A DNA stretch of 61,866 nt, filler included, from Candidatus Woesearchaeota archaeon (GCA_030753365.1; 5 parts of 5 records of this genome joined end to end with filler, not necessarily neighbours in it); one strand, 5' to 3'. Positions 1-59,474 are shown, counted from the whole stretch's first letter. Notes: generated from the letters alone by a model not told the origin. Numbers and translations: made by a program.

Positions 1-451
1 CATAATTGTGTTATATTCCCTCTCTGGCTGGAGCCAAAGGCGACCCGAGAGAGGTCGAGGAGCGGAACGAAGTGAGCACCGCAGAAGTAAGCCGCAGGAA
101 TTTGCCAATCTTAAGGGGGTGGAGGGGGATATTCCCCACCAAACTTTTCTATCCTTATCAATGCAAATTCTGAGGATTTATTGAATATAATACTATATAT
201 ACGACAATCGCAATATTTTGGGGTTAGAGGTTCTGTAAGCTAAGAATTTCAATGTCCATAACCTGTTTTTTCGTATTTACTCTTGAATGAAAATGTTACC
301 CACTGGTCAACCCTATTTGTCCAGTGGTTTTCATCAATATAGAGCTTCTAATCCTAAAATTATTAACTTTAGCTTACCACTGGTCACTGGACAGATGTCC
401 CAGTGAGCTATATAAAGGAATTGCTGTAATCCAATAAAACAGGTAATCAAA

Positions 452-1282
452 ATGGACATACCAGAATTAATAAGGAAAACTGCTCTTAGAAGAGGCTTAA
501 GTCCAAGGACAATTAAAACATACAGAGAATGTGTTAAACGATTCTTCAGAGCATGTGATAAGAATCCTAAAAATGTTAACAAGAAAGATATACAGGATTT
601 TCTAGACAGATTGATTGAAAAAGATGCACCAGGAAATACAATCAATGTTTATCTTAATGCTCTCAAGTTCTTCTATAATGAAATATTAAATAAAAGGCTT
701 ATGATTAGAATAAGGTTTTCCAAGACTCCAAGAAAGATAGCAGAGTTCATGACAAGAGAAGAGACCATAAGGCTTATTGAAGCCATAGAAAACCCTGCTC
801 ATCAGCTAATGGTCAAGCTTATGTATTCTGCAGGCTTAAGAGTAAGTGAATTAGTAAATCTAAAGCCTAAAAACTTTGAGTTCGATAATAACTATGGCTG
901 GGTAAGGAACGGTAAAGGCAGCAAGGACAGGCTCTTCATTATAGCTAAGTTTCTTAAGCAGGAATTAACAGAACATATTGAAAAAGAATGCTCTTATCCT
1001 GATTCATGGCTTTTCAAGGGACGGAAAGGCCATATTTCAGTAAGGTCAATACAAAAGATAGTTGAAAAAGCCAATAAAAAAGCGCACATTAACAAGAACA
1101 TTCATCCTCATACATTAAGGCATACATTTGCAACGCATTTAATCAGTAATAAATATGACATTACCTCTGTCCAGAGTTTATTAGGTCATTCAAGAATAGA
1201 GACAACATTTGATTATGTTCATATAGCCTCACCAAGAATGATTTATGTTAGTAGCCCTTTTGACAGTTTATATAAAAAATAG
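452..1282 (+). CDS. Tyrosine recombinase (XerA/integron-integrase-like, 276 aa)
   Basis: Catalytic set R (GLRVSEL), K (GKGSKDR), HxxR (HTLRH), H (LGH), Y (FDYVH); N-terminal S.RTIKTY motif; C-terminal SPFD. Seems too short to contain the IntI-specific insertion. Confidence 0.9.
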   Translation: MDIPELIRKTALRRGLSPRTIKTYRECVKRFFRACDKNPKNVNKKDIQDFLDRLIEKDAPGNTINVYLNALKFFYNEILNKRLMIRIRFSKTPRKIAEFMTREETIRLIEAIENPAHQLMVKLMYSAGLRVSELVNLKPKNFEFDNNYGWVRNGKGSKDRLFIIAKFLKQELTEHIEKECSYPDSWLFKGRKGHISVRSIQKIVEKANKKAHINKNIHPHTLRHTFATHLISNKYDITSVQSLLGHSRIETTFDYVHIASPRMIYVSSPFDSLYKK

Positions 1283-1346
1283 AGCAGGTTCAGGGATTGC
1301 ATTTTAAGGCAACATATATAAACATAAAAGATTCTGATTTCTTTTA

Positions 1347-2570
1347 ATGATAAAAGACTATTTCCTTATTGCTATTACAAGCCTGAAGAACAGGAAATTG
1401 AGAAGCTGGCTTACTATGATAGGAATAGTCATAGGAATTGCCACTGTTGTTTCCTTGATTGGGCTTGGAGAAGGCCTTAGATATGCTATTAATTCTCAGT
1501 TTGGCTTTTTAGGTGCAGACCTTATAAGCGTTAATATTGGAAGCACTGCAGGCATGCCAGGCACAACTACTGTTGAAGAGCCGTTGACTAAGAGCAATGT
1601 TGGCCAGATTAAGAGGATTCAGGGTGTTAAGATGGCTGCCGGCAGAGTTTTAGATGATGGCAAGATAGAGTTTAATGATAAAACCGATTTTACTGTTTTT
1701 ACAAGCATGCCAAGCGGAGAGTCAAGGCAGGGCATAGAAGAGGTTATTAACTATGAAGCTGCAAGGGGCAGGCTTTTGAAGGATGGTGACAAGTATCTGA
1801 CTGTGGTTGGCTCAAGCCTTGCTGATGAGGATACTTTTGGTAAAGAAATAGTACCTGGAAGTAAGGTAAAGATTGAAGATAAGGATTTTAAGGTTGTTGG
1901 TATTCTTAAAAAGAAAGGAAATTTCATGCTTGATTCATCTGTGTTGATGAATGAAGATGTTCACAGAGAAATATTTGACCTGCCTGCAGGAGAATATGAT
2001 ATGATTGGTGTAAGAGTTAAGGAAGAGAGCAATATTGACAAAATAAAGGAAGATATTGAAAAATTGTTAAGGAAGAAGAGGGATGTTAAGGAAGGTGAAG
2101 AAGATTTTACTGTTGAGACTGCCCAGAATGTTGTGGAGAATCTGAATAATATACTAATGTCTGTTAATATTTTTGTCTGGATTATTGCAGGCATTTCCCT
2201 TGTTGTTGGCGGCATTGGAATCATGAATACTATGTACACCTCTGTTCTTGAGAGAACTAAAGAGGTTGGCATAATGAAGTCTATTGGAGCAAGGAATAGC
2301 ACAATTTTCACCTTCTTTTTTATTGAGTCAGGGTTATTGGGAACTATAGGAGGGATTATTGGCATTTTGTTGGGCGTTTTTTTTGCTACAAGCCTGGCTA
2401 CAGTTGGAAGGGCTGCCTTAGACTCAGATTTAATCTCAGCTCATTTTAGCCCTATACTTATTTTTGGGGCATTACTTTTTTCATTTAGCTTAGGGGTAAT
2501 TTTTGGTGTTATACCTGCATATAAAGCTTCAAAGCTTAACCCTGTGGACGCATTGAGGTTTGTAAAATGA
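1347..2570 (+). CDS. ABC transporter permease, MacB/FtsX family
   Basis: RSWLTMIGIVIGIA start, large extracytoplasmic domain, GIMNTMYTSVLERTKEVGIMKSIGA motif, C-terminal PVDALR. Confidence 0.9.
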   Translation: MIKDYFLIAITSLKNRKLRSWLTMIGIVIGIATVVSLIGLGEGLRYAINSQFGFLGADLISVNIGSTAGMPGTTTVEEPLTKSNVGQIKRIQGVKMAAGRVLDDGKIEFNDKTDFTVFTSMPSGESRQGIEEVINYEAARGRLLKDGDKYLTVVGSSLADEDTFGKEIVPGSKVKIEDKDFKVVGILKKKGNFMLDSSVLMNEDVHREIFDLPAGEYDMIGVRVKEESNIDKIKEDIEKLLRKKRDVKEGEEDFTVETAQNVVENLNNILMSVNIFVWIIAGISLVVGGIGIMNTMYTSVLERTKEVGIMKSIGARNSTIFTFFFIESGLLGTIGGIIGILLGVFFATSLATVGRAALDSDLISAHFSPILIFGALLFSFSLGVIFGVIPAYKASKLNPVDALRFVK

Positions 2571-3787
2571 ATCCTGATCTAGTGATATATTCATTGAAGA
2601 ATTTGTTGAGTAGAAAGACGAGAACCTGGCTTACTATACTTTCTATTCTTATTGGCATCATGGCAATTTTTGCATTGGTAAGCTTTGGCCAGGGCATTGC
2701 AAAATATATGGATGATATGTTCCAGAAGATGGGCACTGATAAGCTGATGATTATGCCTAGAGGAGCTGGCGTGCCTGGAACAGGAAATGTGAAGTTCTAT
2801 GAGGATGATATTGATTTTATCAGAAAAATTAATGGTGTTGGAGAGATTATTGGGTATATGATGGTTAACGGTGAGGTTAAGATTAAGGATGATAAAAAGC
2901 CCAAATACCCCTATGTGATGGGGCTTCCTACAGATCCTGACGAGAGAATGCTTTTTGAGGAAATGGCTGCAGGGTTTGAAGTGGTTGAAGGCAGAGGTTT
3001 GAAAAAAGGTGATAAGCTGAAAGCAAATTTAGGGCATAATTACAGAACTGCAAACAAGGTTTTTAAGAAGGCTCTTAATGTAGGGGATAAGATAATCGTT
3101 AATGGCATTGACGTGGATATTGTAGGTTTTTATGATGAAGTGGGAAACCCTGAAGATGACAGGAATGTTTATCTTACTTTTGAAGGTTTTAAAGAGATTT
3201 TTGATAAAGGAGATGAATACCAAACAATTGTTATACGAGCAGCAGATGATCAAAGCCCCACAGAGCTTGCCGAGAAAATTGGAGATAAGTTCAGGAAGAG
3301 AAAAGGCCAGAAAGAAGGACAGGAAGATTTCCATGTGCAGACTTTTGAGCAAATGATGGAAACTTTTGGCACAGTGATTATTGTTTTGAACGCTGTTCTT
3401 GTTATTATTGCACTGATTTCTTTGGTTGTTGCAGCTGTTAATATTATGAACACTATGTATACTGCTGTTCTTGAAAGAACAAAAGAGATTGGCATAATGA
3501 AAGCTATTGGCTCAAGGAATAGTGATATTCTCTTTGTTTTTGTTTTTGAGTCTGGCTTATTAGGCCTGGTTGGAGGAATTCTTGGTGTTTTGCTTGGTTA
3601 TGGCATTGCCAAGTTTGGAGAGCTTATGGCCAGGCAATCTGGATTGGCAATGTTAAAGCCTTATTTTCCCTGGTGGCTTACTATTGGCTGTTTAATGTTT
3701 GCTTTCTTGGTTGGAGCTGGCTCAGGCTTACTACCTGCAATCCATGCTTCAAAGCAGAAACCCGTGGATGCGTTGCGTTACGAATAG
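2567..3787 (+). CDS. ABC transporter permease, MacB/FtsX family (tandem paralog)
   Basis: Same motifs (NIMNTMYTAVLERTKEIGIMKAIG, PVDALRYE); ATGA overlap with the previous gene. Confidence 0.9.
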   Translation: MNPDLVIYSLKNLLSRKTRTWLTILSILIGIMAIFALVSFGQGIAKYMDDMFQKMGTDKLMIMPRGAGVPGTGNVKFYEDDIDFIRKINGVGEIIGYMMVNGEVKIKDDKKPKYPYVMGLPTDPDERMLFEEMAAGFEVVEGRGLKKGDKLKANLGHNYRTANKVFKKALNVGDKIIVNGIDVDIVGFYDEVGNPEDDRNVYLTFEGFKEIFDKGDEYQTIVIRAADDQSPTELAEKIGDKFRKRKGQKEGQEDFHVQTFEQMMETFGTVIIVLNAVLVIIALISLVVAAVNIMNTMYTAVLERTKEIGIMKAIGSRNSDILFVFVFESGLLGLVGGILGVLLGYGIAKFGELMARQSGLAMLKPYFPWWLTIGCLMFAFLVGAGSGLLPAIHASKQKPVDALRYE

Positions 3788-3835
3788 TAGCGCTAATGTC
3801 AAGAAATGAGCAAAGCGAATGACAGACTCTGAGGT

Positions 3836-4081
3836 ATGAGTAACGCTAAAATGACAAATAAATATTGGTTTACACGAAAAAGGTACGGTTATGGCGCAAC
3901 GCCAGTTACATGGGAAGGTTGGTTGCTTACACTAGGGTTTATTATTATTGTGACTTCGCGAGTCTTAGATGCTGAGAAAAGACCATTCCAATTTACTATG
4001 GAACTAATTGTATTAATATTTGTTCTAATAATAGTAGCAATAAAAAAGACTGAAGGTGGATTTAAGTGGCAATGGGGATAA
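3836..4081 (+). CDS. Small 2-TM membrane protein
   Basis: WF.RKRYGYGATPVTWEGW motif, two hydrophobic helices, GAGGT upstream. Confidence 0.65.
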   Translation: MSNAKMTNKYWFTRKRYGYGATPVTWEGWLLTLGFIIIVTSRVLDAEKRPFQFTMELIVLIFVLIIVAIKKTEGGFKWQWG

Positions 4082-4416
4082 AAGGTAAGATTCAAAGAAC
4101 GCAAGTAATAGATACTACGTTATGAATAAAATCCAATCTATCTCTTAAAAGCAAGAATGTTTGGCTTGTCTTCTCTATATTCAGGCCAAGGTATAGTTAG
4201 ATACTTCATGCATCTTCTAAGACTTTCCATAGCATCAGGCTTTAAGAACATTAATTTCTGAAAATATTCTATCATTCTCTCCCATAGAAACCCATGACAT
4301 TTTGATTAATATAATCCTAAATAATATATAAATATTTATGTGATATAAGGAATTTAATTATTTACTACTTCTTAAAATTACAAAACTCTTATAAAACATT
4401 TACCTTCATTCTGTTT

Positions 4417-5787
4417 ATGAAACGAGATCTCACCAAGGGCAGCATCACTAAAAACATCTTTGCACTATCATTACCTATGATGCTTGCTTTTCTGCTGCAT
4501 ACTGGCTTTAACATAATTGATACTATTTATGTTGGAAAGTTGTCTGCTTTAGCTCTTGCAGCTATTTCTATAACATTTCCTGTTATTTTTCTTATCATTG
4601 CATTAGCTTCTGGTATTGGCATTGGCGTTACTTCGCTTATTGCAAGGCTTTTAGGAGCTGGAAGAAAGAGAGATGCAGATAACGCTGCAGAACATTCATT
4701 ACTGCTTGCTCTTATCCTAAGCATCTTCTTTACAACATTCGGATTAACACTGTCTAAACCATTATTCATTCTGATTGGCACAACTCCTGAAATGATGCCT
4801 CTTGTAATGGATTATGTTAAAATAATTTTTGGCGGCTCTTTTTTCATGTTTCTTGCTTTTATGAGTAATTCAATTTTAAGAGGAGAGGGTGATATGAAAA
4901 CTCCTATGAAAGCTATGATGCTTGGCACTATCCTTAACATTATTCTTGATCCTCTTTTGATTTTCGGTATTGGAATTTTCCCCAGATTAGAAATGGCTGG
5001 CGCTGCGCTGGCAACCATCATAGCTAGGTCAATTTCTTCAGTGTTCGTGTTTTCTCATTTATTAAGAAATAGGGCCCATATTAAGCTTGATTTAAAGAAT
5101 TTTAAGTTTAAGTTTAGCATTATAAAAGACATTTTTTCAATAGGCATTCCCGCATCCTTATCTCAGGCCGTTATGTCCTTTGGCATGTTCTTTATGATGA
5201 AGATTATTTCCAATTTCGGGCCTTTTGCAATAGCTGCTTATGGCCTGGCTAACAGATTGGATATGGTTGCGCTGCTGCCAGCTATAGGCATTTCAACTGC
5301 TGTTATAACTATTGTTGGCCATAATGTTGGTGCTGGAAATTTTAAAAGAGCTGAAAAGACAACCTGGACTGGTGTTTTGATAACAATGATTTTCATGGAA
5401 GTTATAGGATTAATGTTTTTTCTATTCCCTGAGTTCTGGATAAGCATTTTTAACACTAACCCTGATATACTTGCTTATGGTGTATCTTATATTAGGATTA
5501 TCAGCCTTTTGTATATGCTGATTGGTATTAGTATGATTATCCCTTCCGCATTCCAAGGTGCAGGGATAGGTTATCCTTCAATAGTATTATCAGTATTAAG
5601 ATTGCTTGTATTATCTGTGCCGCTTGCTTACTTTTTATCTAAACCTTATGGGGTTACTGGTGTTTGGTATGGTATCGCTATTTCTATAATCGTTACATCT
5701 ATTGTATCTGCCTTATGGTTTAGGGCAGGCACATGGAAGAAAGGCAAGCATCTTGAAGAGAAAGAGATTCCAGAGGTTTCTGGTTAG
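4417..5787 (+). CDS. MATE family efflux transporter
   Basis: DLTKGSI start, about 12 TM, RGEGDMKTPM and NIILDPLLI motifs. Confidence 0.92.
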   Translation: MKRDLTKGSITKNIFALSLPMMLAFLLHTGFNIIDTIYVGKLSALALAAISITFPVIFLIIALASGIGIGVTSLIARLLGAGRKRDADNAAEHSLLLALILSIFFTTFGLTLSKPLFILIGTTPEMMPLVMDYVKIIFGGSFFMFLAFMSNSILRGEGDMKTPMKAMMLGTILNIILDPLLIFGIGIFPRLEMAGAALATIIARSISSVFVFSHLLRNRAHIKLDLKNFKFKFSIIKDIFSIGIPASLSQAVMSFGMFFMMKIISNFGPFAIAAYGLANRLDMVALLPAIGISTAVITIVGHNVGAGNFKRAEKTTWTGVLITMIFMEVIGLMFFLFPEFWISIFNTNPDILAYGVSYIRIISLLYMLIGISMIIPSAFQGAGIGYPSIVLSVLRLLVLSVPLAYFLSKPYGVTGVWYGIAISIIVTSIVSALWFRAGTWKKGKHLEEKEIPEVSG

Positions 5788-5797
5788 AAACAAAATC

Positions 5798-6751
5798 TTA
5801 TTTTTTCTTAGACTTTTTACTTTTTTTAACTTTCTTCACAACTTTTGTTTTAGGCTTAGCACTGCTTTTCGTCATTTTCCCAGCCAATTTCTCTATATAC
5901 TTCTCTTCCTTCTCAACCTTTTTCTCTTCTTTTTTTATCATCTTTTCTTCCTTGCCTATGATAGCTTCTTCTTTCTTAAATTCCCTGAAGAATGCCTGGA
6001 AGTTTGAGATATAAACAAACAGTATTGCAACGAATATAACATTTACTATTGCTCCTATTAAAGCCTCTGTGCTAACCAAAAACCTTGCAATAGCTGTTAC
6101 AGGCGTTATGTCACCATATCCAATAGTTGCAAATGTGATTATACTGAAATAGATATATTGAGAATATACAATTGGCTTATCAACAGCATATGAAAATGCA
6201 CCTGGATCTGATGCTGCAATATTAAAGAATATCCATCCAAAACCAAATGTATAGAATATTAGTATGCTTACATACACTAATATCACCATCAACTGTTTAT
6301 ACTGTTTGAACCATTTGCTTATATCAACATCCATCCCCAATACTTCAGGACAGTATATGAATGTAAGCAGTATGTATGTTGCTAGATGAGGCATTTCTAT
6401 GAAAAAGAGTGAAGGATTGCGTTTTATGATAAGCATTGGAAGGGTAAGGCCTACTGCTACTATAAGAAAGCCTATTAATGAATATCTTACTCCTTTCACA
6501 CTTTCTCTGTTCCTTATAAAAGGGATAAGAAAGAAGAATATAATCATTGTTACAAATACCATAATCACTTGAACCATTATGTTCACTGTTGTCTCAAATT
6601 TCTCATGTATTCTGACTGCTATGAGCCTTGATAACATAACTGAGAGAACAATAGGCACAATGAAGAGCAAATTATAGAGAATAAGCTTTGTTATTGTAAT
6701 TTCTCCTGTACCATAGCCTGCGCTAAATATATCACCACCTTTTTTTTCCAT
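5798..6751 (-). CDS. Potassium channel family protein (pore domain, N-terminal TM region, Lys-rich tail)
   Basis: Pore helix and filter YFSIITFATIGYGDITP; no RxxRxxR S4 segment visible. Confidence 0.85.
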   Translation of the reverse strand: MEKKGGDIFSAGYGTGEITITKLILYNLLFIVPIVLSVMLSRLIAVRIHEKFETTVNIMVQVIMVFVTMIIFFFLIPFIRNRESVKGVRYSLIGFLIVAVGLTLPMLIIKRNPSLFFIEMPHLATYILLTFIYCPEVLGMDVDISKWFKQYKQLMVILVYVSILIFYTFGFGWIFFNIAASDPGAFSYAVDKPIVYSQYIYFSIITFATIGYGDITPVTAIARFLVSTEALIGAIVNVIFVAILFVYISNFQAFFREFKKEEAIIGKEEKMIKKEEKKVEKEEKYIEKLAGKMTKSSAKPKTKVVKKVKKSKKSKKK

Positions 6752-6893
6752 TTTTATAATAGTCTACCTTTTAGTATATATATTTTTATAACATATCTTA
6801 TAAATATTTATCTTTTTGTAAGAATAAAATATTCCAAATATTTATATATTATCATTGTTAGAAAAATTAACTATAAAAAGAGGGTGAATTACT

Positions 6894-9230
6894 ATTTCAA
6901 GGAACAAGCTAGATGAAATAATACAAAATATTATTCCACCTGCTCTAGTGCTGCTTCTTACTGTTACCATTTTTGAATCATTCTATGACATTTCAAGGTA
7001 TAGTGCTCTTATAGACATTTTTGATCTTGTAGTTATTATCATCTTTGCCATAGATTTGTATTTCAGATGGCTAGAAACCCCGCATTTTATTCCTTATGTT
7101 AAAAAACACTACCTTGACATTATTGCAACTATCCCTTTTAACTATATATTCATGGGCATAGAATATCTTTCTTTTACACGAGCCCTAAGAGGGATTAGAG
7201 TTATTGCAAGAGTCGCAAAGATGGCAAGATTCGCCCGTTATGGAAAACTTCTCAGGTTGTTCAGGTTTGCTGCAAGAGCTCCCAGGTTCCTTAGGATGCG
7301 TCATCATCTAAAAAAGACAGAGATTAGGAAGGTGCAGCCTCATGAGAAGAAGATGAAAGGTGTGCTAAGCTTTAGAGTTATACTGCTTGTTACCATCAAT
7401 TCAATCATGGGCACTGGCATCTGGTTCCTTACATCAGCTGGCGCAAAGTATGCAGGGCCTGCATCGTTGATCTCATGGGGCATTTTATCAGTTATTGCAG
7501 TTTATATTGCAATGTGCTTCTCAGAGCTTACCAGCATGTTTCCTAAGGCAGGAGGTGTTTATGAGTTCGCAAAACAAACCTATGGAAGGTTCTGGAGCTT
7601 CGTTATTGGCTGGACAACATCCATTGCAGGCAGTGTTACAATCTCTATGCTTTTATTGGGAGCGTTGCAGTATATGATACCTATTGAATATTCAAGATTC
7701 TATATTCCTATAGCTATTGGCCTTGTGGTATTGTTCAACTATATTGCATTCAAAGGCATGCAGACAAGCACTTATATGCTTGTTACATTTGCATTAATCA
7801 CTCTAGGAACAATTACAGCTATCATAGTGCCTGGCTTTTTTAAGTTCAATATTGCAAATTTCTCCCCATTCTTTGTATTCCCAACCATGAACCTGCTTTT
7901 AGCAATCTTCTTTATCGCTGAAACATTCTTTGGCTGGGAGAGCGCTATATTCTTATCTGCAGAGACAAAGAATCCTACTAAGGTCATGCCTAAAGCGCTT
8001 ATTTATGGCACTATAGCAATCGCCGGGTTTGCTCTTCTGCTTTCACTGACTGCAATGGGTGTTATCCCCTGGCAGACTTATGCAGAGTCTTCAGCTCCTT
8101 TAAGGGATTTAGGCAAGGCCTATTTTGGTAATATAGGTGGTATTGTGTTTACACTTCTCGTATCTGTATCTATAATTGGCGCTGTTGCCAGCTGGATTGT
8201 GACTTCACCGAGACTTTTGATGGCTCTTGCAGAGGATAAGCTGTTCTTTGTTCAGTTTGCAAAGATACATCCTAAGCATAAAAGCCCTTATGTGTCTATA
8301 ATATTTCAGGTTCTTATTATCTCTATCCTTGTTGTTATAGGAGCTGGCTCATATGAAAAACTGCTTCATCTTCTAATACCGCTTATATTGATACTTTATT
8401 CAGCCGTGCTTATGAGCGTTGTTATCCTAAGATTCAAAAAGCCAGAGCTTCCAAGACCGTTCAAAGTACCTTTTGGTAAGGTTGGACCATTCTTCATTGT
8501 GCTCTTTATGGTTTTTTTGATGATAATGTTCATCAGGGAAACACATGGCGCAATGGACATTTTAAGGGTTTCAAGCTCATTAATCTTTTTTGGCATCCCT
8601 GCATACTTCGCTATAGAAATATTTTATGACCAAAAATATATCATTATGAGAAAGAACTTTCTTGCAAAGCTTTCCCATCTTTACCATTTAGCTCCTCTCC
8701 CAAAACCTTTGTTCAACCATATCCTTAAGCTTATAGGAACAACTAAGAAGGATCATGTGTTCCTTGACTATGACTGCGGTGTGGGAGGGTTCACAAGAAG
8801 GATTATTAAGAAAAAGCTGCCCTTCAAAAGGATTTATGCTATTGACAAGTCAAGCGAGCAGATAAAAGTATTCAAAGAGAATATTCCAAAAGAATATAAG
8901 AACAAGGTTAAGGTTTCTTATAAGAAATCATGGAAAATCCCTCCTAATATAAGGAACATTGACATATTCTTCTCTTTTAACTCGCTTGGATATATAGATG
9001 ATATTCCAGTATTCCTTAAGCACTTAAGAACTGTTCTTAAGAAGAAAGGAAGGTTTTGCTTCTATATCAAGCACAGTATAATCGATGTAACTCCTAACGC
9101 ATTAATTGTTGAAGATGAAAAGAAAGTAAAAGAATTGTTTTCCAAAGAAAAGTTCAGTGTAACTTATTCTAAAAGAAAGCGAAGTCTTTTCAGCAGACAG
9201 ATATTCATTTATGGGAAAAGGTTGGGTTAA
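6894..9230 (+). CDS. Fusion: voltage-sensor domain + APC amino-acid permease + SAM-methyltransferase-like domain
   Basis: S2 IFAIDLYFR, S3 YLDIIATIPF, S4 RALRGIRVIARVAKMARFAR; APC motifs NSIMGTGIW, GGVYEFAK, FFGWE; C-terminal FLDYDCGVG. ORF track starts at GTG 6948, but the frame is open from 6888 with ATT at 6894 after RBS GAGGGTGA. Confidence 0.8.
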   Translation: MSRNKLDEIIQNIIPPALVLLLTVTIFESFYDISRYSALIDIFDLVVIIIFAIDLYFRWLETPHFIPYVKKHYLDIIATIPFNYIFMGIEYLSFTRALRGIRVIARVAKMARFARYGKLLRLFRFAARAPRFLRMRHHLKKTEIRKVQPHEKKMKGVLSFRVILLVTINSIMGTGIWFLTSAGAKYAGPASLISWGILSVIAVYIAMCFSELTSMFPKAGGVYEFAKQTYGRFWSFVIGWTTSIAGSVTISMLLLGALQYMIPIEYSRFYIPIAIGLVVLFNYIAFKGMQTSTYMLVTFALITLGTITAIIVPGFFKFNIANFSPFFVFPTMNLLLAIFFIAETFFGWESAIFLSAETKNPTKVMPKALIYGTIAIAGFALLLSLTAMGVIPWQTYAESSAPLRDLGKAYFGNIGGIVFTLLVSVSIIGAVASWIVTSPRLLMALAEDKLFFVQFAKIHPKHKSPYVSIIFQVLIISILVVIGAGSYEKLLHLLIPLILILYSAVLMSVVILRFKKPELPRPFKVPFGKVGPFFIVLFMVFLMIMFIRETHGAMDILRVSSSLIFFGIPAYFAIEIFYDQKYIIMRKNFLAKLSHLYHLAPLPKPLFNHILKLIGTTKKDHVFLDYDCGVGGFTRRIIKKKLPFKRIYAIDKSSEQIKVFKENIPKEYKNKVKVSYKKSWKIPPNIRNIDIFFSFNSLGYIDDIPVFLKHLRTVLKKKGRFCFYIKHSIIDVTPNALIVEDEKKVKELFSKEKFSVTYSKRKRSLFSRQIFIYGKRLG

Positions 9231-9279
9231 AGAAAAGTCTTTATATATCTTATGTTTATCTATGTGATAGGTGATAGAT

Positions 9280-9548
9280 ATGGAACAAACAACATTATCT
9301 GGAGATGAATGGGAAGATGGAAAGTATGTATTATTTGGTAAGGGGATAGACTGGCAATAAATCTAAGGAAAAGCATGGTCCAGGCTCTGGGCTTGAAACC
9401 GAGAGACGAAGTTAAGATTTATGTGAAGAAAGTGCGAGAAAATGTTGCAAAAGTAAGGGATCAGCCCAAGAATCCTTTCAACAAGACACCAGAAATTGGT
9501 GATGCTGGAAAACCCAATGCTGCTGACTCAGAGGTAATATCTTATTAA
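9280..9548 (+). pseudogene. Frameshifted AbrB/MazE/SpoVT-type DNA-binding protein
   Basis: RBS AGGTGA then ATG 9280 (MEQTTLSGDEW...FGK). A shifted frame continues GDRLAINLRKSMVQALGLKPRDEVKIYV to TAA 9548; shift near 9340-9345. Confidence 0.55.
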
Positions 9549-9782
9549 CCATTCTTTATAAACTTTTTTGATAATTCCCTAAAAAAGATGAAAAATCATC
9601 AAAAAATACCATTTTTCACGAAAAACCGCAGAAATTCTTCAAAAATCCCAAATATTACTTGAAAGATTTTCTTATCTACTTAGGGATTATAGATGAATCC
9701 GTTTACATGAAAGACGTTTTTGGCTACTGGTTCAAATCTGTTCTTGGTTGGATAATCACTATTTTAGTCACAGGATCTTTTA

Positions 9783-10058
9783 TCAATGTTCCACTAATGT
9801 TACTTTTCTCATTTCCTCTTCTGTAGCACCATACTCAATATGTTCTTCAAACTTGATTTCTATTTTCTCGCTTAGCATCTCGTTTATTTCCTGTCTAAGA
9901 GCATTAGAATGCACTATCATCTGCAGATAGCTTATCTGCCCCATCTCATACTGCTCCCCGTATTTTACAATAGAATTAATTTTACTGTCTATAGATTCAG
10001 CATAAGAAATAGGTATAATAAGTAGAATAATCAATACTAATAATATCTTTTTTACCAT
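9783..10058 (-). CDS. Short secreted protein, possibly the truncated N-terminus of a larger gene
   Basis: Signal peptide MVKKILLVLIILLIIPISYA, GGGGG RBS, abrupt end. Confidence 0.45.
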   Translation of the reverse strand: MVKKILLVLIILLIIPISYAESIDSKINSIVKYGEQYEMGQISYLQMIVHSNALRQEINEMLSEKIEIKFEEHIEYGATEEEMRKVTLVEH

Positions 10059-10168
10059 TAATACCCCCTTTTTAGAACTCTTTTTGATGTTGCTTGTATT
10101 TAAATGTTGTTTTTTCTAAATTCCTTTATAGCAAAGTTTAAAAGCAACTACCCATAATTATTTCCATT

Positions 10169-12904
10169 ATGAAACAAAACTGGTTCATAAGAATTATTCT
10201 TGGCATAATTTTTGCACTAATCATTTCTATCTCAGCTTTGGCTGGGTTATACACTGATTTTCTTTGGTTTGATGCTCTAGGTTTCTCTCAAATTTTCCTG
10301 ATAAGCCTTTTTTCAAGGGTTAAATTGTTTTTTGCAACAGCCTTGTTCCTCTTTTTGTTCCTGATTGCCAACCTTTGGGTTTCATCAAAGATTACTGAAA
10401 AAAATGTTGTGCCCTTCAGGATTAAACTATTCATCGTCACTATAATATCATTCATGGTTGGCCTTACCGCTTCTTCAGGTTGGTTCAAGGTTTTGCAATA
10501 CTTTAACCAAATATCTTTTAATCTCAATGACCCAATTTTCATAAAAGATGTGTCTTTCTATGTATTTTCACTTCCTTTCTATTTATTAGTATGGAACTTT
10601 CTAATGGGTTGTGTTGTTATTACAATAGTTTTAGTTCTGTTAGATTACTTTCAGTCTGCTATTTCAGCAGCTGTTAAGCCAAAGAAGCCCGTTGTTGACA
10701 CTGTAACACCAATGTCTCCAACCGTTGATTTCAAGGCTGTTTTTTCAAAGATAAAGACCAAGGCAGTAGCTCATCTGGGCATTTTAGTTTCTTTTGCTTT
10801 TGTTTTACTGGCGGTTAGGCATTATCTTTCAAGGTTTTCAATTATGTATTCAGAGCAAGGCATTGTTGTTGGCGCTGGTTATTCTGATGTTGTTGCCTTT
10901 TTGCCTATGATTAAGATTATGATGGTTTTGGCAGTTTGTGTTGCCGTAGTTTTGCTAATTTGGGTGTTTTATATCTCAAAGCAACCCAAATTGAAAAAAC
11001 GCCATATTCTGGGTTATGCATTAATCCTTTATTTCCTATTTGGGTTTGTAGGCCCTACAATGATTCCTGGCATTGTGCAGGCTTTGAAGGTTTCTCCTAA
11101 TGAGATTAATCTTGAGAAACCTTATATTGAGAATAACATAAAGTTTACCCGTTTGGCTTATGGCTTATCTGAAGTTGAAGAGAAAGATTTCCCTGCTGAC
11201 ATGAAACTGACTTCTGAGATGCTTGATGAAGCTTCAGAGACTATTGATAATGTGAGAATCCTTGACAGAAGACCTTTGACAAAAACATACAAACAAACGC
11301 AGGAGATTAGATTGTATTATGACCTTGCAGGCATTGATATTGACAGATATAATATTAATGGTAAGTATACTGCTGTCATGCTTGCCCCCAGAGAGCTTGA
11401 CCAAAGGCAGATAACTGAGAATGCAAAGACCTGGGTTAACCTTCACATGGTTTATACCCACGGTTTTGGGATTGTTATGAGCCCAGTTAACAAGGTTACA
11501 AAGCAGGGTCTGCCGGACTATTTTATTAAGGATATTCCACCAATTTATACTATTGATGAAGAAAATCTAAAGGTTTCAAGGCCGCAGATGTATTATGGAG
11601 AGAAGGATAACGATTTTGTTCTTGTTAACACCAAAACAAACGAGTTTGATTATCCTAAGGGCAATACTAATGAATATATTAACTATGACGGAAAAGGTGG
11701 AGTAGTGTTAGATTCTTTCTTAAAGAAACTATTGATGGCTATAAGATTTGCAGACATTAAGATACTTTTATCTTCAGATATTGCTCCTGATAGCAAGGTA
11801 ATGTTCGCTAGAGAGATTACAAGAAGAGTTTCAAAGCTTACACCATTTTTAGAGCTTGATGGTGATCCTTACATTGTTATTGATAAAAGCGGAAATCTAA
11901 AGTGGATACTGGATGCATATACCACCACTGGAAATTACCCTTACTCTGAGAAGATTGGGCAGATTAATTATATAAGAAACTCAGTCAAAATTGTTGTTGA
12001 TGCTTATGACGGCACTGTTACTTATTATGTTATGGACATTTCCGATCCTTTAATGCTTACTTATGCAAAGATCTTCCCTAAACAGTTCAAACGGTTTGAG
12101 GACATGCCCGCTGACCTGAAAGAGCATATTAGATATCCTAAGGATTTGTTTAAGGTACAGTCTCATATCTATAGCACTTATCACATGGATGATATTAAAG
12201 TGTTCTATAACAAGGAAGATGCCTGGCAGATCCCTAACGAAGTTTACGGCGTTGGCCAGCAGGTTATGGTAGAGCCTTACCATATTATAATGAAACTTCC
12301 TGATGAGGCTAAGGAAGAGTTTGTTTTGATGACTAGTTTTAGTCCTATCAAGAAGGACAACATGGTAGCATGGATGGCTGCCCGCTCTGATGGACAGGAT
12401 TATGGGAAATTAATATTGTATAAGTTCCCTAAGGATAAATTGATTTATGGTCCTTTACAGATTGAAGCAAAGATTGACCAGGACTCTGAGATTTCAAAAC
12501 AGCTTACTTTATGGAGTCAGCAGGGTTCAAGGGTTACAAGAGGTAATTTGCTTGTTATTCCTATTGAAGATAGTATTATTTATATCGAGCCTTTATATAT
12601 CCAGGCAGAGACTGGGCAGCTCCCTGAGCTGAAAAGGGTTTTAGTTTCTGATGGTATTAGTGTTGTTATGGAAGAGAATCTTGCTGAAGCTTTGGAAGTT
12701 CTGTTCGGAAAAAGCAAGAGAGTTGTTGAAGAGAAAGGAGAACTGATAGAGGAAGGAACTTTAGAAGTTAAAACAACTTCTGAACTTATTGAAGAAGCCC
12801 AAAATTATTATGATCTTATTGAGAATTCTATGAAAGAAGGCGACTGGTCTGGCATTGGAAACAATCTTGGCAAGTTAGGGAATGTTCTAGAAAGCTTGAG
12901 TTAG
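10169..12904 (+). CDS. UPF0182 family membrane protein
   Basis: YTDFLWF, DIDRY, WVNLHMVYTHGFG, NYIRNSVK, RGNLLVIP and EPLY motifs. Confidence 0.92.
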   Translation: MKQNWFIRIILGIIFALIISISALAGLYTDFLWFDALGFSQIFLISLFSRVKLFFATALFLFLFLIANLWVSSKITEKNVVPFRIKLFIVTIISFMVGLTASSGWFKVLQYFNQISFNLNDPIFIKDVSFYVFSLPFYLLVWNFLMGCVVITIVLVLLDYFQSAISAAVKPKKPVVDTVTPMSPTVDFKAVFSKIKTKAVAHLGILVSFAFVLLAVRHYLSRFSIMYSEQGIVVGAGYSDVVAFLPMIKIMMVLAVCVAVVLLIWVFYISKQPKLKKRHILGYALILYFLFGFVGPTMIPGIVQALKVSPNEINLEKPYIENNIKFTRLAYGLSEVEEKDFPADMKLTSEMLDEASETIDNVRILDRRPLTKTYKQTQEIRLYYDLAGIDIDRYNINGKYTAVMLAPRELDQRQITENAKTWVNLHMVYTHGFGIVMSPVNKVTKQGLPDYFIKDIPPIYTIDEENLKVSRPQMYYGEKDNDFVLVNTKTNEFDYPKGNTNEYINYDGKGGVVLDSFLKKLLMAIRFADIKILLSSDIAPDSKVMFAREITRRVSKLTPFLELDGDPYIVIDKSGNLKWILDAYTTTGNYPYSEKIGQINYIRNSVKIVVDAYDGTVTYYVMDISDPLMLTYAKIFPKQFKRFEDMPADLKEHIRYPKDLFKVQSHIYSTYHMDDIKVFYNKEDAWQIPNEVYGVGQQVMVEPYHIIMKLPDEAKEEFVLMTSFSPIKKDNMVAWMAARSDGQDYGKLILYKFPKDKLIYGPLQIEAKIDQDSEISKQLTLWSQQGSRVTRGNLLVIPIEDSIIYIEPLYIQAETGQLPELKRVLVSDGISVVMEENLAEALEVLFGKSKRVVEEKGELIEEGTLEVKTTSELIEEAQNYYDLIENSMKEGDWSGIGNNLGKLGNVLESLS

Positions 12905-13198
12905 ATTTATTATCTTAAAAACATAACCAGAAATATATAAAGATTAATCTAAATATTCCTCTCCTGGAATATATTCATCACTAGCAGGCAAACAAACAAC
13001 AACATCAAATTTCCTTGCTATTTCTTTAGTTAACCTTTCTGCTTCAATACAAGAAGGGTCTCTAAGATGATAATTTACATTTAATTCTGAAACAACTTTA
13101 AAACCTGAATTCTCCCAATCAGAAACTTCCTCTTCTTCTATTGTATGAGGAAAATAGAATAGATGAGGCCAATCGTCTTTTTTATTATAGTAAAATAT

Positions 13199-13298
13199 NN
13201 NNNNNNNNNNNNNNNNNNNNNNNNNNNNNNNNNNNNNNNNNNTTAATTAATTAANNNNNNNNNNNNNNNNNNNNNNNNNNNNNNNNNNNNNNNNNNNN
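13199..13298. other. Artificial contig linker (N-TTAATTAATTAA-N)
   Basis: 100-nt N run containing an all-frame stop linker. Confidence 0.97.
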
Positions 13299-29665: not shown

Positions 29666-29765
29666 NNNNNNNNNNNNNNNNNNNNNNNNNNNNNNNNNNN
29701 NNNNNNNNNTTAATTAATTAANNNNNNNNNNNNNNNNNNNNNNNNNNNNNNNNNNNNNNNNNNNN
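29666..29765. other. Artificial contig linker
   Basis: N run with TTAATTAATTAA. Confidence 0.97.
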
Positions 29766-45325: not shown

Positions 45326-45425
45326 NNNNNNNNNNNNNNNNNNNNNNNNNNNNNNNNNNNNNNNNNNNNTTAATTAATTAANNNNNNNNNNNNNNNNNNN
45401 NNNNNNNNNNNNNNNNNNNNNNNNN
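45326..45425. other. Artificial contig linker
   Basis: N run with TTAATTAATTAA. Confidence 0.97.
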
Positions 45426-59374: not shown

Positions 59375-59474
59375 NNNNNNNNNNNNNNNNNNNNNNNNNN
59401 NNNNNNNNNNNNNNNNNNTTAATTAATTAANNNNNNNNNNNNNNNNNNNNNNNNNNNNNNNNNNNNNNNNNNNN
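59375..59474. other. Artificial contig linker
   Basis: N run with TTAATTAATTAA. Confidence 0.97.

Follow-up and report, generated by a model that had tools for sequence, protein, structure and literature searches.

Textbooks present voltage sensors as components of ion channels. A locus in a Woesearchaeota genome raises the question of whether such a sensor may be built into an amino-acid carrier and govern it. The window, i.e. the whole stretch of DNA analysed, comprises 61,866 nucleotides (filler included) from Candidatus Woesearchaeota archaeon (GCA_030753365.1), and one ORF on its plus strand, running from ATT 6894 to TAA 9230, encodes a 778-aa protein in three parts: a voltage-sensor domain (VSD), a permease and a methyltransferase (MTase)-like domain. 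We hold with moderate confidence that the gene product is an amino-acid carrier regulated by the membrane potential in a DPANN archaeon of the Woesearchaeales type. In the available text of PMC10620092 and PMC13095418, the animal sperm protein SLC9C1 is the only secondary transporter described as VSD-regulated; the 778-aa protein would be a second, independent and prokaryotic case of a VSD-carrier. Our literature search found no paper describing a VSD–permease fusion.

No stop interrupts the plus-strand frame between 6888 and the TAA at 9228–9230, and the nearest in-frame stop 5′ of ATT 6894 is the TGA at 6885–6887. The automated ORF call begins at GTG 6948 and yields 760 aa. Homologue N-termini read M-x-[RK]-[NS]-K-L-D-x-x-I-Q-x-L-I-P-P, with which the window’s I-S-R-N-K-L-D-E-I-I-Q-N-I-I-P-P, encoded 5′ of GTG 6948, aligns, and in the closest relative (L002), GAGGTG and ATA take the places of GAGGGTGA and ATT 6894. 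Because the homologue N-termini align upstream of GTG 6948 and the Shine–Dalgarno-like GAGGGTGA is present, ATT 6894 is the best start for the 778-aa ORF.

Independent Logan contigs bridged the VSD/permease junction in 4/4 runs (four studies) and the permease/MTase junction in 3/4 runs, with no differences, indels or joints over the gene, and the stretch carrying it was present in 20 runs of 15 studies. The original prediction had read a continuous ORF from 6894, which the open frame, the homologues and GAGGGTGA bear out; the strings that it quoted (FAIDLYFR, YLDIIATIPF, an S4 string, NSIMGTGIW, FFGWE and FLDYDCGVG) are each found in the ORF, and the junction check that it proposed rules out a chimera, as contigs of four studies cross the junctions without differences. 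Although the window consists of contigs concatenated with N spacers and the gene caller chose a GTG further downstream, the notion that the gene is an artefact, produced by chimeric assembly or by reading through two or three genes, is refuted for practical purposes, since the entire gene lies inside one contig (C44) with no internal stop, contigs of four runs from four studies cover it identically, bridging the junctions, and the same architecture recurs in other genomes (below). No RNA runs are listed among those carrying the stretch; three metatranscriptome runs from the same sample as one carrier run contained next to none of the gene’s words and are uninformative on expression.

Table 1 Features of the 778-aa ORF and its 5′ flank, with positions counted from the first letter of the window.
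Feature	Position	Strand	Basis or remarks
Shine–Dalgarno-like GAGGGTGA	6880..6887	+	Read directly; 6 nt before ATT 6894
Probable non-canonical start codon ATT	6894..6896	+	M/V/I at the aligned position in homologues
Pre-S1 helix and S1, residues 5–30, KLDEIIQNIIPPALVLLLTVTIFESF	6906..6983	+	Helix in both AF2 models, pLDDT 73–82
S2, residues 34–61	6993..7076	+	D41/D44 outer acidic pair; F51-x-x-D54 charge-transfer motif; R58
S2–S3 loop and S3, residues 65–94, YLDIIATIPFN	7086..7175	+	D75, P81
S4 and extension, residues 95–136	7176..7301	+	Basic at 96, 99, 102; 106, 109, 112, 115, 118, 121, 124; 128, 131, 134, 136
Linker in the cytoplasm joining S4 with permease TM1, residues 137–159, HHLKKTEIRKVQPHEKKMKGVLS	7302..7370	+	
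APC/SLC7-like permease core, ~12 TM helices, residues 160–596	7371..8681	+	pLDDT mostly 80–93
Cytoplasmic class-I methyltransferase-like Rossmann domain, residues 604–778	8703..9227	+	Pfam; pLDDT 75–93
Motif I FLDYDCGVGGF, imperfect glycine-rich SAM loop	8760..8792	+	Aligns with vvDvGCGsGG of CbiT
Post-I strand IYAIDKS, acidic residue retained	8832..8852	+	Family comparison, CbiT alignment

The architecture of VSD, permease and MTase-like domain was found in more than 100 protein clusters of Woesearchaeota/Nanoarchaeota and in 22 of the 301 sampled genomes, one of which (G034) ends at a contig edge at residue 604. Among the best 120 homologues, identity was 60–82%, and 99 were at least 760 aa long. 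The earlier claims on architecture and host thus hold: the three domains are real, with Pfam and profile matches and the same arrangement across the clusters; the suggested search of DPANN genomes returned the same arrangement; and the host is a DPANN archaeon, the homologues being named Woesearchaeota/Nanoarchaeota and the genome measuring 897 kb. In this genome (94.5% complete), the sole APC match found with the carrier query is this protein. The suggested HMM scan placed AA_permease_2 and methyltransferase models above their cut-offs and Ion_trans, for the N-terminal domain of the ORF alone, below it. The mean top-residue fraction was 0.78 for the VSD, 0.79 for the linker, 0.85 for the permease and 0.60 for the MTase-like domain; conservation of VSD and linker comes close to that of the permease and exceeds that of the MTase-like domain.

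Profile comparisons identify the N-terminal module as a pore-less S1–S4 VSD homologous to the sensors of Kv/Nav/HCN channels, as originally predicted, and this homology is significant at the profile level only. The 160 N-terminal residues alone matched Pfam Ion_trans with E 0.0017 and 18 bits, under the cut-off of 25, over profile positions 15–117 of 241, i.e. S1–S4; across the family, Ion_trans was matched over S1–S4 in 49/79 members (best E 2.6e-10), some above the cut-off. All PDB matches of the single sequence (40/40) were channel voltage sensors. Profile A1 matched the KvAP sensor 1ors with E 5.8e-5, all 28 of its matches being channel VSDs, and profile A3 matched KvAP 6uwm with E 7.9e-7 (18/18 matches channel VSDs), as well as Shaker, a bacterial Nav and Kv1.2. 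The VSDs of KvAP and other Kv, Nav and HCN channels share with the module the S2 Phe/Leu-x-x-Asp, the S3 acidic residue and the i+3 basic ladder, whereas the S5-P-S6 pore of these channels is absent after the VSD of the 778-aa protein. We rejected a degenerate Kv channel that has lost its pore, as a pore follows the VSD in none of the best 150 representatives and Ion_trans matches stop near profile position 120 of 241.

In a charge-transfer centre, S2 supplies a hydrophobic or aromatic side chain with an acidic one three places further along, and S3 supplies a further acidic residue. Such a centre was found at the KvAP S2/S3 positions, with F51 and D54 invariant and D75 conserved in at least 90% of alignment A1, where it aligns with the KvAP S3 acidic residue. 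In S2, F43, D44, F51, D54 and R58 are invariant in 22/22 sequences, and in the profile alignment KvAP S2 has an Asp and an Arg where D54 and R58 align; over 79 fusion and stand-alone VSDs, conservation reaches at least 90% at D44, F51 and D54, and P81 is invariant (79/79). The pre-S1 helix and S1 hold the invariant D7, I14, P15 and P16 (22/22 sequences) and a conserved Glu28.

The S4 region (42 aa) contains 14 basic residues, compared with 4–6 in channels, and follows a minimal S3–S4 loop. Its 10 i/i+3 basic pairs were reached in 10 of 200,000 shuffles, and with basic pairs counted across the family, lag 3 gave 777 and lags 1, 2 and 5 zero. S4 length varied in steps of 3 with the register kept in 97/110 parsed sequences. 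Conservation reaches at least 90% at R99, R102, R115, R121 and R128, and R96, R99 and R102 align to three consecutive KvAP S4 arginines. These patterns suggest that selection preserves the sensor residues, namely the S2 Phe-x-x-Asp, the S3 Asp and the i+3 register. Much of S4 must sit outside the field, because 42 residues with 14 charges far exceed the membrane span; the long S4 could instead act as a basic cytoplasmic or interfacial helix. In the linker that follows, K146, P149, H150 and L158 are invariant, with I144, R145, Q148, K152 and K155 kept in at least 90% of sequences. VSD-less paralogues begin inside this linker, with MAELKKVLSF.

Two AF2 models predicted helices at residues 5–30, 34–61, 65–94 and 99–138. 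The model of the isolated VSD had a pLDDT of 67.6, and its helices were not packed as a four-helix bundle; with this model, Foldseek returned nothing at E ≤ 0.001 (top match KvAP sensor 2kyh, E 1.2) and a wide VIA search returned helical hairpins only. The full-length model reached a pTM of 0.81, with pLDDT 44–60 in the S4 region, and its Foldseek search says nothing on the VSD, because only permease matches are among the rows listed. In the ESM Atlas, the best score for residues 1–150 was 0.84, below the trustable level, and Ion_trans was among the top three clusters. A complex prediction pairing VSD and permease scored 0.59 against 0.00 for the best of three controls, with runs agreeing in at least 82% of contacts and partner pLDDT of at least 60. 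The mark applied was attained by 116/157 solved complexes and 2/215 mismatched pairs, and at scores of 0.60 or lower by 18 of those 157 complexes and both mismatches; the prediction thus weakly supports a VSD–permease contact.

The middle part matched Pfam AA_permease_2 with E 7.3e-44 and 150.8 bits (cut-off 27) and AA_permease with 105.8 bits (cut-off 24.6). Foldseek aligned the model with BasC 9h76 (E 3.4e-17, TM-score 0.84 on the target, rmsd 3.6 Å over 438 columns), followed by LAT1, GkApcT and AdiC. The AA_permease_2 score well above cut-off and the BasC fold match agree with the APC/LeuT-fold permease claimed originally, and the modelled carrier has a LeuT-type fold. The top NCBIfam match, the amino acid transporter TIGR00909, had E 3e-55 and 187.9 bits against a cut-off of 556.8; none of the best 25 of 35 NCBIfam matches reached its curated cut-off, and the carrier is therefore placed in no named substrate subfamily. 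The SLC7-type APC carriers BasC, LAT1/LAT2, GkApcT, AdiC and ApcT share its fold at ~20–23% identity but, unlike the 778-aa protein, have neither a VSD nor a methyltransferase-like tail. In NKCC/NCC and KimA, too, a cytoplasmic alpha/beta domain comes after the LeuT-fold core, and the longest Foldseek alignments were those with NKCC1, NCC and KimA with c-di-AMP (rmsd 12–18 Å); the tail of the 778-aa protein is methyltransferase-like, as against the CCC or KimA domains of those carriers. Fifteen carrier positions differ between VSD-bearing (54) and VSD-less (8) sequences and are scattered over TM2–TM12 with no clear patch.

Five Pfam models matched the C-terminal domain above their cut-offs (score/cut-off: Methyltransf_31 34.6/27, _11 34.1/21.2, _12 32.7/30, _25 32.6/27 and _23 28.9/27), which together with the alternating beta/alpha pattern of residues 622–776 in the AF2 model confirms a class-I MTase-like Rossmann domain. 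Its PDB sequence matches were weak and all methyltransferases (best CbiT 2yxd, E 0.0011). In class-I methyltransferases, motif I reads D/E-x-G-x-G-x-G and an acidic residue ends strand 2. The motif I of the 778-aa protein, DYDCGVGG, has Asp instead of the first Gly. Most VSD-bearing relatives have lost both motif I and the post-I acidic residue (consensus DYNSPMGA and IYAANQS), and the eight VSD-less paralogues have near-canonical LEFGCSVG or LDYGSGVG with VYATD. The SAM/SAH regulation originally proposed keeps the post-I acidic residue in its favour and is weakened because the motif is imperfect here and degenerate in most VSD-bearing relatives; regulation of the carrier by SAM/SAH is thus weakly supported. 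The domain is unlikely to work as a methyltransferase throughout the family. It most probably serves for regulation or dimerisation and, in the 778-aa protein, may still bind SAM/SAH.

The permease–MTase protein without a VSD is the ancestral, commoner and wider form. In a quick tree, 21/21 VSD-bearing cores fell on one side of a branch (SH-aLRT 100, stem 1.33), indicating that the VSD was added once, at the N-terminus, in one clade. By sequence relationship, it derives from a large and hitherto unnamed archaeal family, common in the same phylum and brought to light here, whose pore-less proteins consist of a stand-alone VSD: members occur in 139/301 sampled genomes, and stand-alone proteins make up 118 of the best 150 representatives among the nearest relatives of the VSD. 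Fused and stand-alone VSDs have the motifs IPP...LLL, IDL.F.Y/W, WLDIIA..PF and R.PRF in common. The VSD family is also fused to HPP and to unknown 4–5 TM membrane modules. In seven genomes of one family, stand-alone VSD genes lay within 2 kb of permease–MTase genes. K+-channel and stand-alone VSD genes adjoin in some loci.

The intracellular gate of LeuT-fold carriers comprises, among other elements, TM1a and the N-terminal segment. We infer that voltage would control transport in the 778-aa protein via the invariant S4-to-TM1 linker. The topology would fit, with the N-terminus inside, S4 passing from outside to inside and the permease TM1 then from inside to outside. S4 (10–14 basic residues at i+3) would extend past the membrane into the near-invariant basic linker, which would run directly into TM1 of the LeuT-fold core. 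Since this linker joins TM1, part of the intracellular gate, displacement of S4 by voltage would lock or release the carrier. The likely benefit would be that the only detected APC carrier is kept from reversal or leak when the membrane potential collapses.

In SLC9C1, according to the available text of PMC10620092, a VSD whose S4 measures 90 Å gates the carrier. SLC9C1 is likewise a secondary carrier covalently linked to an S4-type VSD and a cytoplasmic ligand-type domain, and its S4 is unusually long, as in the 778-aa protein; the mechanism proposed here would in principle resemble the long SLC9C1 S4, which relieves a cytoplasmic constriction upon hyperpolarisation. However, the metazoan SLC9C1 has a CPA/NhaA-fold exchanger with the VSD C-terminal to the carrier and coupled via a cytoplasmic domain containing a domain that binds cyclic nucleotides (CNBD), whereas the archaeal protein has an APC/LeuT-fold permease, an N-terminal VSD leading straight into TM1 and a methyltransferase-like third domain; no Pfam match to a cyclic-nucleotide-binding domain was found in it. 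By analogy, the 778-aa protein may work like SLC9C1, yet it is no SLC9C1-type exchanger, and the different carrier fold and domain order agree with the earlier proposal of a fusion independent of SLC9C1. An SLC7-family carrier and a VSD are functionally linked in the case of Slc7a5 (LAT1) and Kv1.1/Kv1.2, too: in the available text of PMC7690953, Slc7a5 modulates Kv1 channels and the channel VSD sets the sensitivity. There, separate proteins act in trans and the carrier modulates the channel.

Membrane voltage may thus switch nutrient transport in these DPANN cells. The candidate sensor sits on the LeuT/APC fold, which includes the SLC6/SLC7 drug targets, and is wired directly to TM1. If functional, the protein would offer a compact one-chain system of 778 aa for S4 gating of an alternating-access carrier and a clue to nutrient uptake and membrane energetics in ultra-small symbiotic archaea.

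Alternatively, the VSD might be a structural, targeting or partner-binding module without voltage control of transport, holding the carrier with stand-alone VSD proteins, a K+ channel or particular lipids. There are pore-less VSD proteins that lack a clear voltage output (TMEM266, in the available text of PMC13095418), and the adjacency of K+-channel and stand-alone VSD genes in some loci would suit such a role. As this VSD family is mostly solo and otherwise joined to the unrelated HPP and 4–5 TM modules, it could be a general membrane-association module. An anchor, however, needs neither the S2 Phe-x-x-Asp, the S3 Asp, the i+3 arginines and the three-step indels, all of which are under selection, nor a nearly invariant S4-to-TM1 linker, and we regard this alternative as unlikely.

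We consider it improbable that the VSD is itself a conduction path, i.e. an Hv1-like proton or omega-type cation leak feeding or dissipating the coupling ion. Ci-VSP, Hv1 and TMEM266 also have a VSD without a channel pore that controls another module or stands alone, but they are eukaryotic, their effector is a phosphatase or none, unlike the carrier here, and all three are absent from the single-sequence and profile PDB matches. Hv1 is a VSD alone that conducts protons (available text of PMC13095418), the closest relatives of our VSD are VSD-only proteins without a pore domain that need a function of their own, and acidic residues are conserved in S1 and S2 (E28, D41, D44). The arginine ladder, though, is unbroken, with no i+3 gap of the kind that opens an omega pore; this VSD, unlike an Hv1-type protein, is fused to a 12-TM carrier; and in its available text the review PMC13095418 gives Hv channels as not found in bacteria or archaea.

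There is similarly little likelihood that the protein is a transceptor, in which amino-acid binding, voltage and possibly SAM are converted into a signal via the MTase-like domain. APC-type carriers have turned into receptors elsewhere (Ssy1; available text of PMC12958826), the long stem to the VSD-bearing clade suggests a change of function, and most members have a degenerate MTase-like domain; but the permease core, including the unwound TM1/TM6 motifs NSIMGTGIW and FFGWE, is the most conserved part, and the protein is the only APC match found in the genome of a presumed amino-acid importer.

Beyond voltage control of this one carrier, a wider and rather doubtful proposal is that DPANN archaea of this phylum regulate membrane transport generally by means of a portable pore-less VSD, in cis and in trans. 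This VSD may act in cis through fusions to SLC7-like carriers, HPP-family proteins and the unknown 4–5 TM module, and in trans through stand-alone VSD subunits of 140–250 aa encoded beside VSD-less permease–MTase genes. If this were true, voltage-gated secondary carriers would be a prokaryotic strategy and not a metazoan oddity (SLC9C1), and minimal-energy cells could close importers as the membrane potential falls. The stand-alone VSD family is archaeal; the available text of the review PMC13095418 gives VSD-only Hv channels as not found in bacteria or archaea.

The plus-strand frame of the fusion gene, which joins a voltage-sensor domain (VSD, S1–S4) to an APC permease and a methyltransferase (MTase)-like domain, has no stop between 6888 and the TAA at 9228–9230. 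A mechanical ORF list placed the start at GTG 6948 (760 aa). Homologues keep the 22 residues ahead of this GTG, their N-termini reading M-x-[RK]-[NS]-K-L-D-x-x-I-Q-x-L-I-P-P; an SD-like GAGGGTGA lies 6 nt upstream of ATT 6894, and the closest relative (locus L002) has GAGGTG and then, at the codon aligned to the ATT, ATA (about 3802–3804, −). The start at ATT 6894 (778 aa) of the original prediction was therefore accepted and used for residue numbering; all motifs quoted in that prediction were also found in the translated ORF. The GTG start of the gene caller removes a conserved pre-S1 helix. Non-ATG initiation is apparently common for this gene: the ATT and the ATA each follow an SD-like GAGG(G)TG, and at the aligned start several further relatives show Val or some other residue than Met.

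Homology of the predicted voltage sensor was investigated with single sequences and profiles. The N-terminal 160 residues alone matched Ion_trans over S1–S4 of the profile with E 0.0017 and 18 bits, below the cut-off of 25, and channel voltage sensors were all 40 matches in a single-sequence PDB search. Profile A1, built from 22 orthologous N-domains, matched the isolated sensor of the channel KvAP (E 5.8e-5), VSDs being 28 of 28 matches. Profile A3, from 13 fusion and 66 stand-alone relatives (VSD proteins without another domain; 79 sequences), matched KvAP (E 7.9e-7), Shaker, a bacterial Nav and Kv1.2, with VSDs as 18 of 18 matches, and 49 of its 79 sequences matched Ion_trans individually (best E 2.6e-10). 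On A1, A3 and the individual matches, homology of the N-terminal domain to channel voltage sensors is established at the profile level. The isolated N-domain model (pLDDT 67.6) was unpacked, with the KvAP sensor as best Foldseek match (E 1.2), and a wide VIA structure search returned hairpins only. In the full-length model, pLDDT was 72–84 in S1–S3 and only 44–60 in the S4 region.

All 22 sequences of A1 share Asp44, Phe51, Asp54 and Arg58, and Asp41 and Asp75 reached at least 90%; in the wider set of 79 (fusions plus stand-alone proteins), Pro81 was invariant and Asp44, Phe51 and Asp54 reached at least 90%. HMM alignment to KvAP placed Asp54, Arg58, Asp75 and Pro81 on the S2 Asp, S2 Arg, S3 Glu and S3 Pro, and Arg96, Arg99 and Arg102 on three consecutive S4 arginines. 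Phe51 aligned with the S2 position that holds the charge-transfer Phe in Kv1.2. Between residues 91 and 142 there are zero acidic residues, and the 10 i/i+3 pairs among the 14 S4 basic residues were matched by just 10 of 200,000 shuffles. Family-wide (110 parsable of 120 sequences), basic pairs in the S4 region numbered 777 at lag 3, 201 at lag 4 and zero at lags 1, 2 and 5. The region from the S3 end to RAPRF measured 32, 38, 41 or 44 residues, with a single case of 62 (representative P0115), and was congruent modulo 3 in 97 of the 110 sequences, so that indels occur in whole R-x-x units. Judged from these alignments, the i+3 register itself is under selection. The length polymorphism in R-x-x units (window 7176–7301) suggests that the number of gating charges may be tunable.

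Genes flanking the fusion gene, sensor residues, MTase motifs and architectures of sensor-profile matches
Feature	Position or sample	Strand	Details
Multi-TM protein, 456 aa	4417–5787	+	flanking gene on same contig
K+-channel-like protein, 317 aa	5798–6751	−	divergent neighbour; Pfam Ion_trans_2 E 2.4e-10; TIGYGD signature
Membrane protein, 911 aa	10169–12904	+	flanking gene on same contig
S1	Glu28		majority residue, about 90%
S2	Asp41, Asp44; Phe51-x-x-Asp54; Arg58		Asp41 and Asp44 outer
S3	Asp75, Pro81		
S4 basic residues	96, 99, 102 / 106, 109, 112, 115, 118, 121, 124 / 128, 131, 134, 136		
MTase motifs	VSD-less paralogues (8/8)		motif I LEFGCSVG or LDYGSGVG; post-I strand VYATD in most
MTase motifs	window and near relatives		motif I DYDCGVGG, Asp replacing first Gly; post-I strand IYAIDKS
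MTase motifs	many other VSD-bearing members		motif I e.g. VYNSKMGA; post-I strand IANQSK; both features lost
Stand-alone VSD proteins	118 of best 150		141–246 aa; a few are truncated fusion genes, e.g. P0121, P0123
Fragments	12 of best 150		under 130 aa
Extra N-terminal membrane domain ahead of VSD	17 of best 150		four TM_HPP: P0155, P0211, P0226, P0227
Extra C-terminal sequence	3 of best 150		two are the present permease fusion

The predicted APC permease was confirmed by AA_permease_2 (150.8 bits, cut-off 27) and by matches of the full-length AF2 model (mean pLDDT 81.5, pTM 0.81) to BasC (9h76, E 3.4e-17, TM-score 0.84 on target), LAT1, GkApcT and AdiC. No NCBIfam subfamily cut-off was reached, and the substrate can be specified no more closely than "amino acid or related". 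S4 is followed by R-A-P-R-F-L-R, then H-H-L-K-K-T-E-I-R-K-V-Q-P-H-E-K-K-M-K-G-V-L-S-F and permease TM1. In this linker region Pro130, Arg131, Phe132, Lys146, Pro149, His150 and Leu158 are invariant and many neighbours reach at least 90%. In LeuT-fold carriers TM1a belongs to the intracellular gate, and displacement of S4 would act through the invariant linker on TM1a to lock or release the carrier; the topology is compatible with S4-to-TM1 coupling. The predicted complex of sensor and permease scored 0.59 (best control 0.00), with at least 82% contact agreement among runs and partner pLDDT of at least 60. On benchmark pairs, 116 of 157 solved complexes and 2 of 215 mismatched pairs passed, and passes scoring 0.60 or less comprised 18 of the 157 solved complexes plus both mismatched pairs; the prediction hints, weakly, at direct sensor–permease contact. 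We consider it very probable that a genuine VSD homologue, lacking a pore, is joined here to a carrier, and give regulation of transport by voltage roughly even chances. The likeliest rival is a structural or partner-binding role of the sensor, against which stand the charge register of S4 and the nearly invariant linker.

Searching 1.84 billion representatives with the sensor profile yielded 403 matches at E ≤ 1e-3, of which 109 had E ≤ 1e-10, and the best 150 of the 403 were classified by architecture. None of these best 150 representatives had a pore after the VSD, and Ion_trans matches ended near profile position 120 of 241. A conduction role of the sensor itself is a further, unlikely rival. 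The signature motifs of the fusion sensor are common to the stand-alone proteins, which, where named, are "ion transporter" or "hypothetical protein" of Woesearchaeota, Aenigmarchaeota and one Muiribacteriota bacterium. The TM_HPP fusions (4 representatives, VSD C-terminal) and the 4–5 TM fusions belong to the same VSD clade and are further non-channel VSD fusions. The latter, with the VSD C-terminal to an unassigned 4–5 TM domain of about 135 aa, comprise 13 representatives, including P0146, P0182 and P0188–P0190. The stand-alone family (P0125–P0269) is large, unnamed and pore-less (about 140–250 aa), occurs in the sampled phylum, Aenigmarchaeota and at least one bacterium, and has a long acidic S3–S4 insert (Q..LHEG.E.EKE) and a C-terminal FFEKP.GKHH motif.

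In the phylum sample of 301 genomes, 139 had a VSD of the stand-alone type (G243 is one of them; no claim depends on it alone) and 155 had a match to the fusion protein. The search of DPANN genomes for the same architecture, suggested with the original prediction, found the VSD-bearing three-domain form in 22, including the window's own (the G034 copy stops at residue 604, where its contig ends), all in one order and seven coded families, 15 of them in family f12. Permease–MTase proteins without the VSD filled about 100 listed rows (by-eye count), aligned from query residue about 130–160 to about 770–780 in open frames of about 630–740 aa; the extracted paralogues begin MAELKKVLSF, within the linker. 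Other orders of the class have mostly the permease alone, about 410 aa. From this distribution, permease–MTase is the older and wider form, an evolutionary context that the first reading did not contain. In a quick ML tree of the permease–MTase core (21 VSD-bearing, 8 VSD-less and 2 outgroup rows; truncated L020 omitted), the 21 VSD-bearing sequences lay beyond one branch (SH-aLRT 100, length 1.33), which is consistent with a single VSD gain followed by fast change. L030 (genome G244) is one of the 8 VSD-less comparators in alignment A2, the motif comparison and the tree, and no claim depends on it alone. A stand-alone VSD gene lay less than 2 kb from a permease–MTase-type gene in G064, G121, G261, G138, G257, G263 and G252; these seven genomes are not independent, since all belong to f12. 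Fusion of such neighbouring genes is the simplest origin. With the fusion protein as query, the window's genome had the VSD-bearing copy only. Tandem arrays of three permease–MTase paralogues occur at G287:C14:1925-8371 and G121:C5:72700-80128 (loci L006 and L008), their members being a VSD-less copy (about 49% identity), a VSD-bearing copy and a third (about 33%) with a low-complexity N-terminal extension; the G121 array has a stand-alone VSD gene between the second and third.

The claim of a SAM-MTase-like C-terminal domain was supported: five Pfam methyltransferase models were above cut-off and the model has a Rossmann-like strand/helix alternation. The idea of SAM/SAH regulation is weakened: Asp replaces the first Gly of motif I in this protein, and both motif features are lost in many VSD-bearing relatives (54 VSD-bearing and 8 VSD-less rows plus family consensus compared). 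Within the VSD clade the domain is therefore degenerating as an enzyme. Our reading is that it serves as a tail for regulation or dimerisation, in loose analogy to the cytoplasmic domains of NKCC/NCC and KimA; these had the longest Foldseek alignments, though poor ones. This particular protein may still bind SAM or SAH. Mean conservation (100 sequences) was 0.78 in the sensor, 0.79 in the linker, 0.85 in the permease and 0.60 in the MTase-like domain; the high value of the permease counts against a third rival, a transceptor.

An artefact is the weakest rival: the fusion gene lies entirely inside contig C44 (genome 897 kb, 94.5% complete), 6700–9300 is present in 20 public runs of 15 studies (marine, seawater and hydrothermal-vent metagenomes), and contigs of 4 runs from 4 studies, chosen among those not flagged as possible sources, showed zero differences, indels or joints against the gene. 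All 4 runs bridged the sensor/permease junction; 3 of them also bridged the permease/MTase junction, where the fourth has a low-depth gap. The best 120 of 817 protein-search matches had 60–82% identity, 99 of them being at least 760 aa; where named, they were just "amino acid permease" or "APA family antiporter" of Woesearchaeota/Nanoarchaeota, and none carried a precomputed Ion_trans annotation.

A 2024 review gives the metazoan sperm Na+/H+ exchanger SLC9C1 as the transporter case and Hv channels as absent from bacteria and archaea (PMC13095418). A term search of a 2025 review of VSD diversity matched neither "transporter" nor "archaea", and the fusion was not found in literature on voltage sensors with amino-acid permeases, APC/LeuT, DPANN or prokaryotic architectures, a search whose coverage left out most subscription journals. 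S4 is far longer than a membrane span in the fusion protein, as in HCN channels and SLC9C1, whose S4 is described as 90 Å long (PMC10620092). The fusion protein may work like SLC9C1 but lies outside that family, from which it differs in carrier fold, in domain order and in its third domain. A parallel in trans is the modulation of Kv1 channels by the SLC7 carrier Slc7a5, with sensitivity set by the channel VSD (PMC7690953).

Paired 44-N spacers occur in the window at 13199–13298, 29666–29765, 45326–45425 and 59375–59474 and join at least five contigs, so the neighbourhood of the fusion gene is readable within 1–13198 only. Neither the 456-aa nor the 911-aa flanking gene was seen in the 1.5-kb flanks of the relatives' fusion genes. 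The 317-aa neighbour has several TM segments before the pore, without an S4-like ladder, and a Lys/Glu-rich C-terminal tail; weakly similar pore-containing ORFs adjoin the fusion gene in loci L005, where they are also divergent, and L012.
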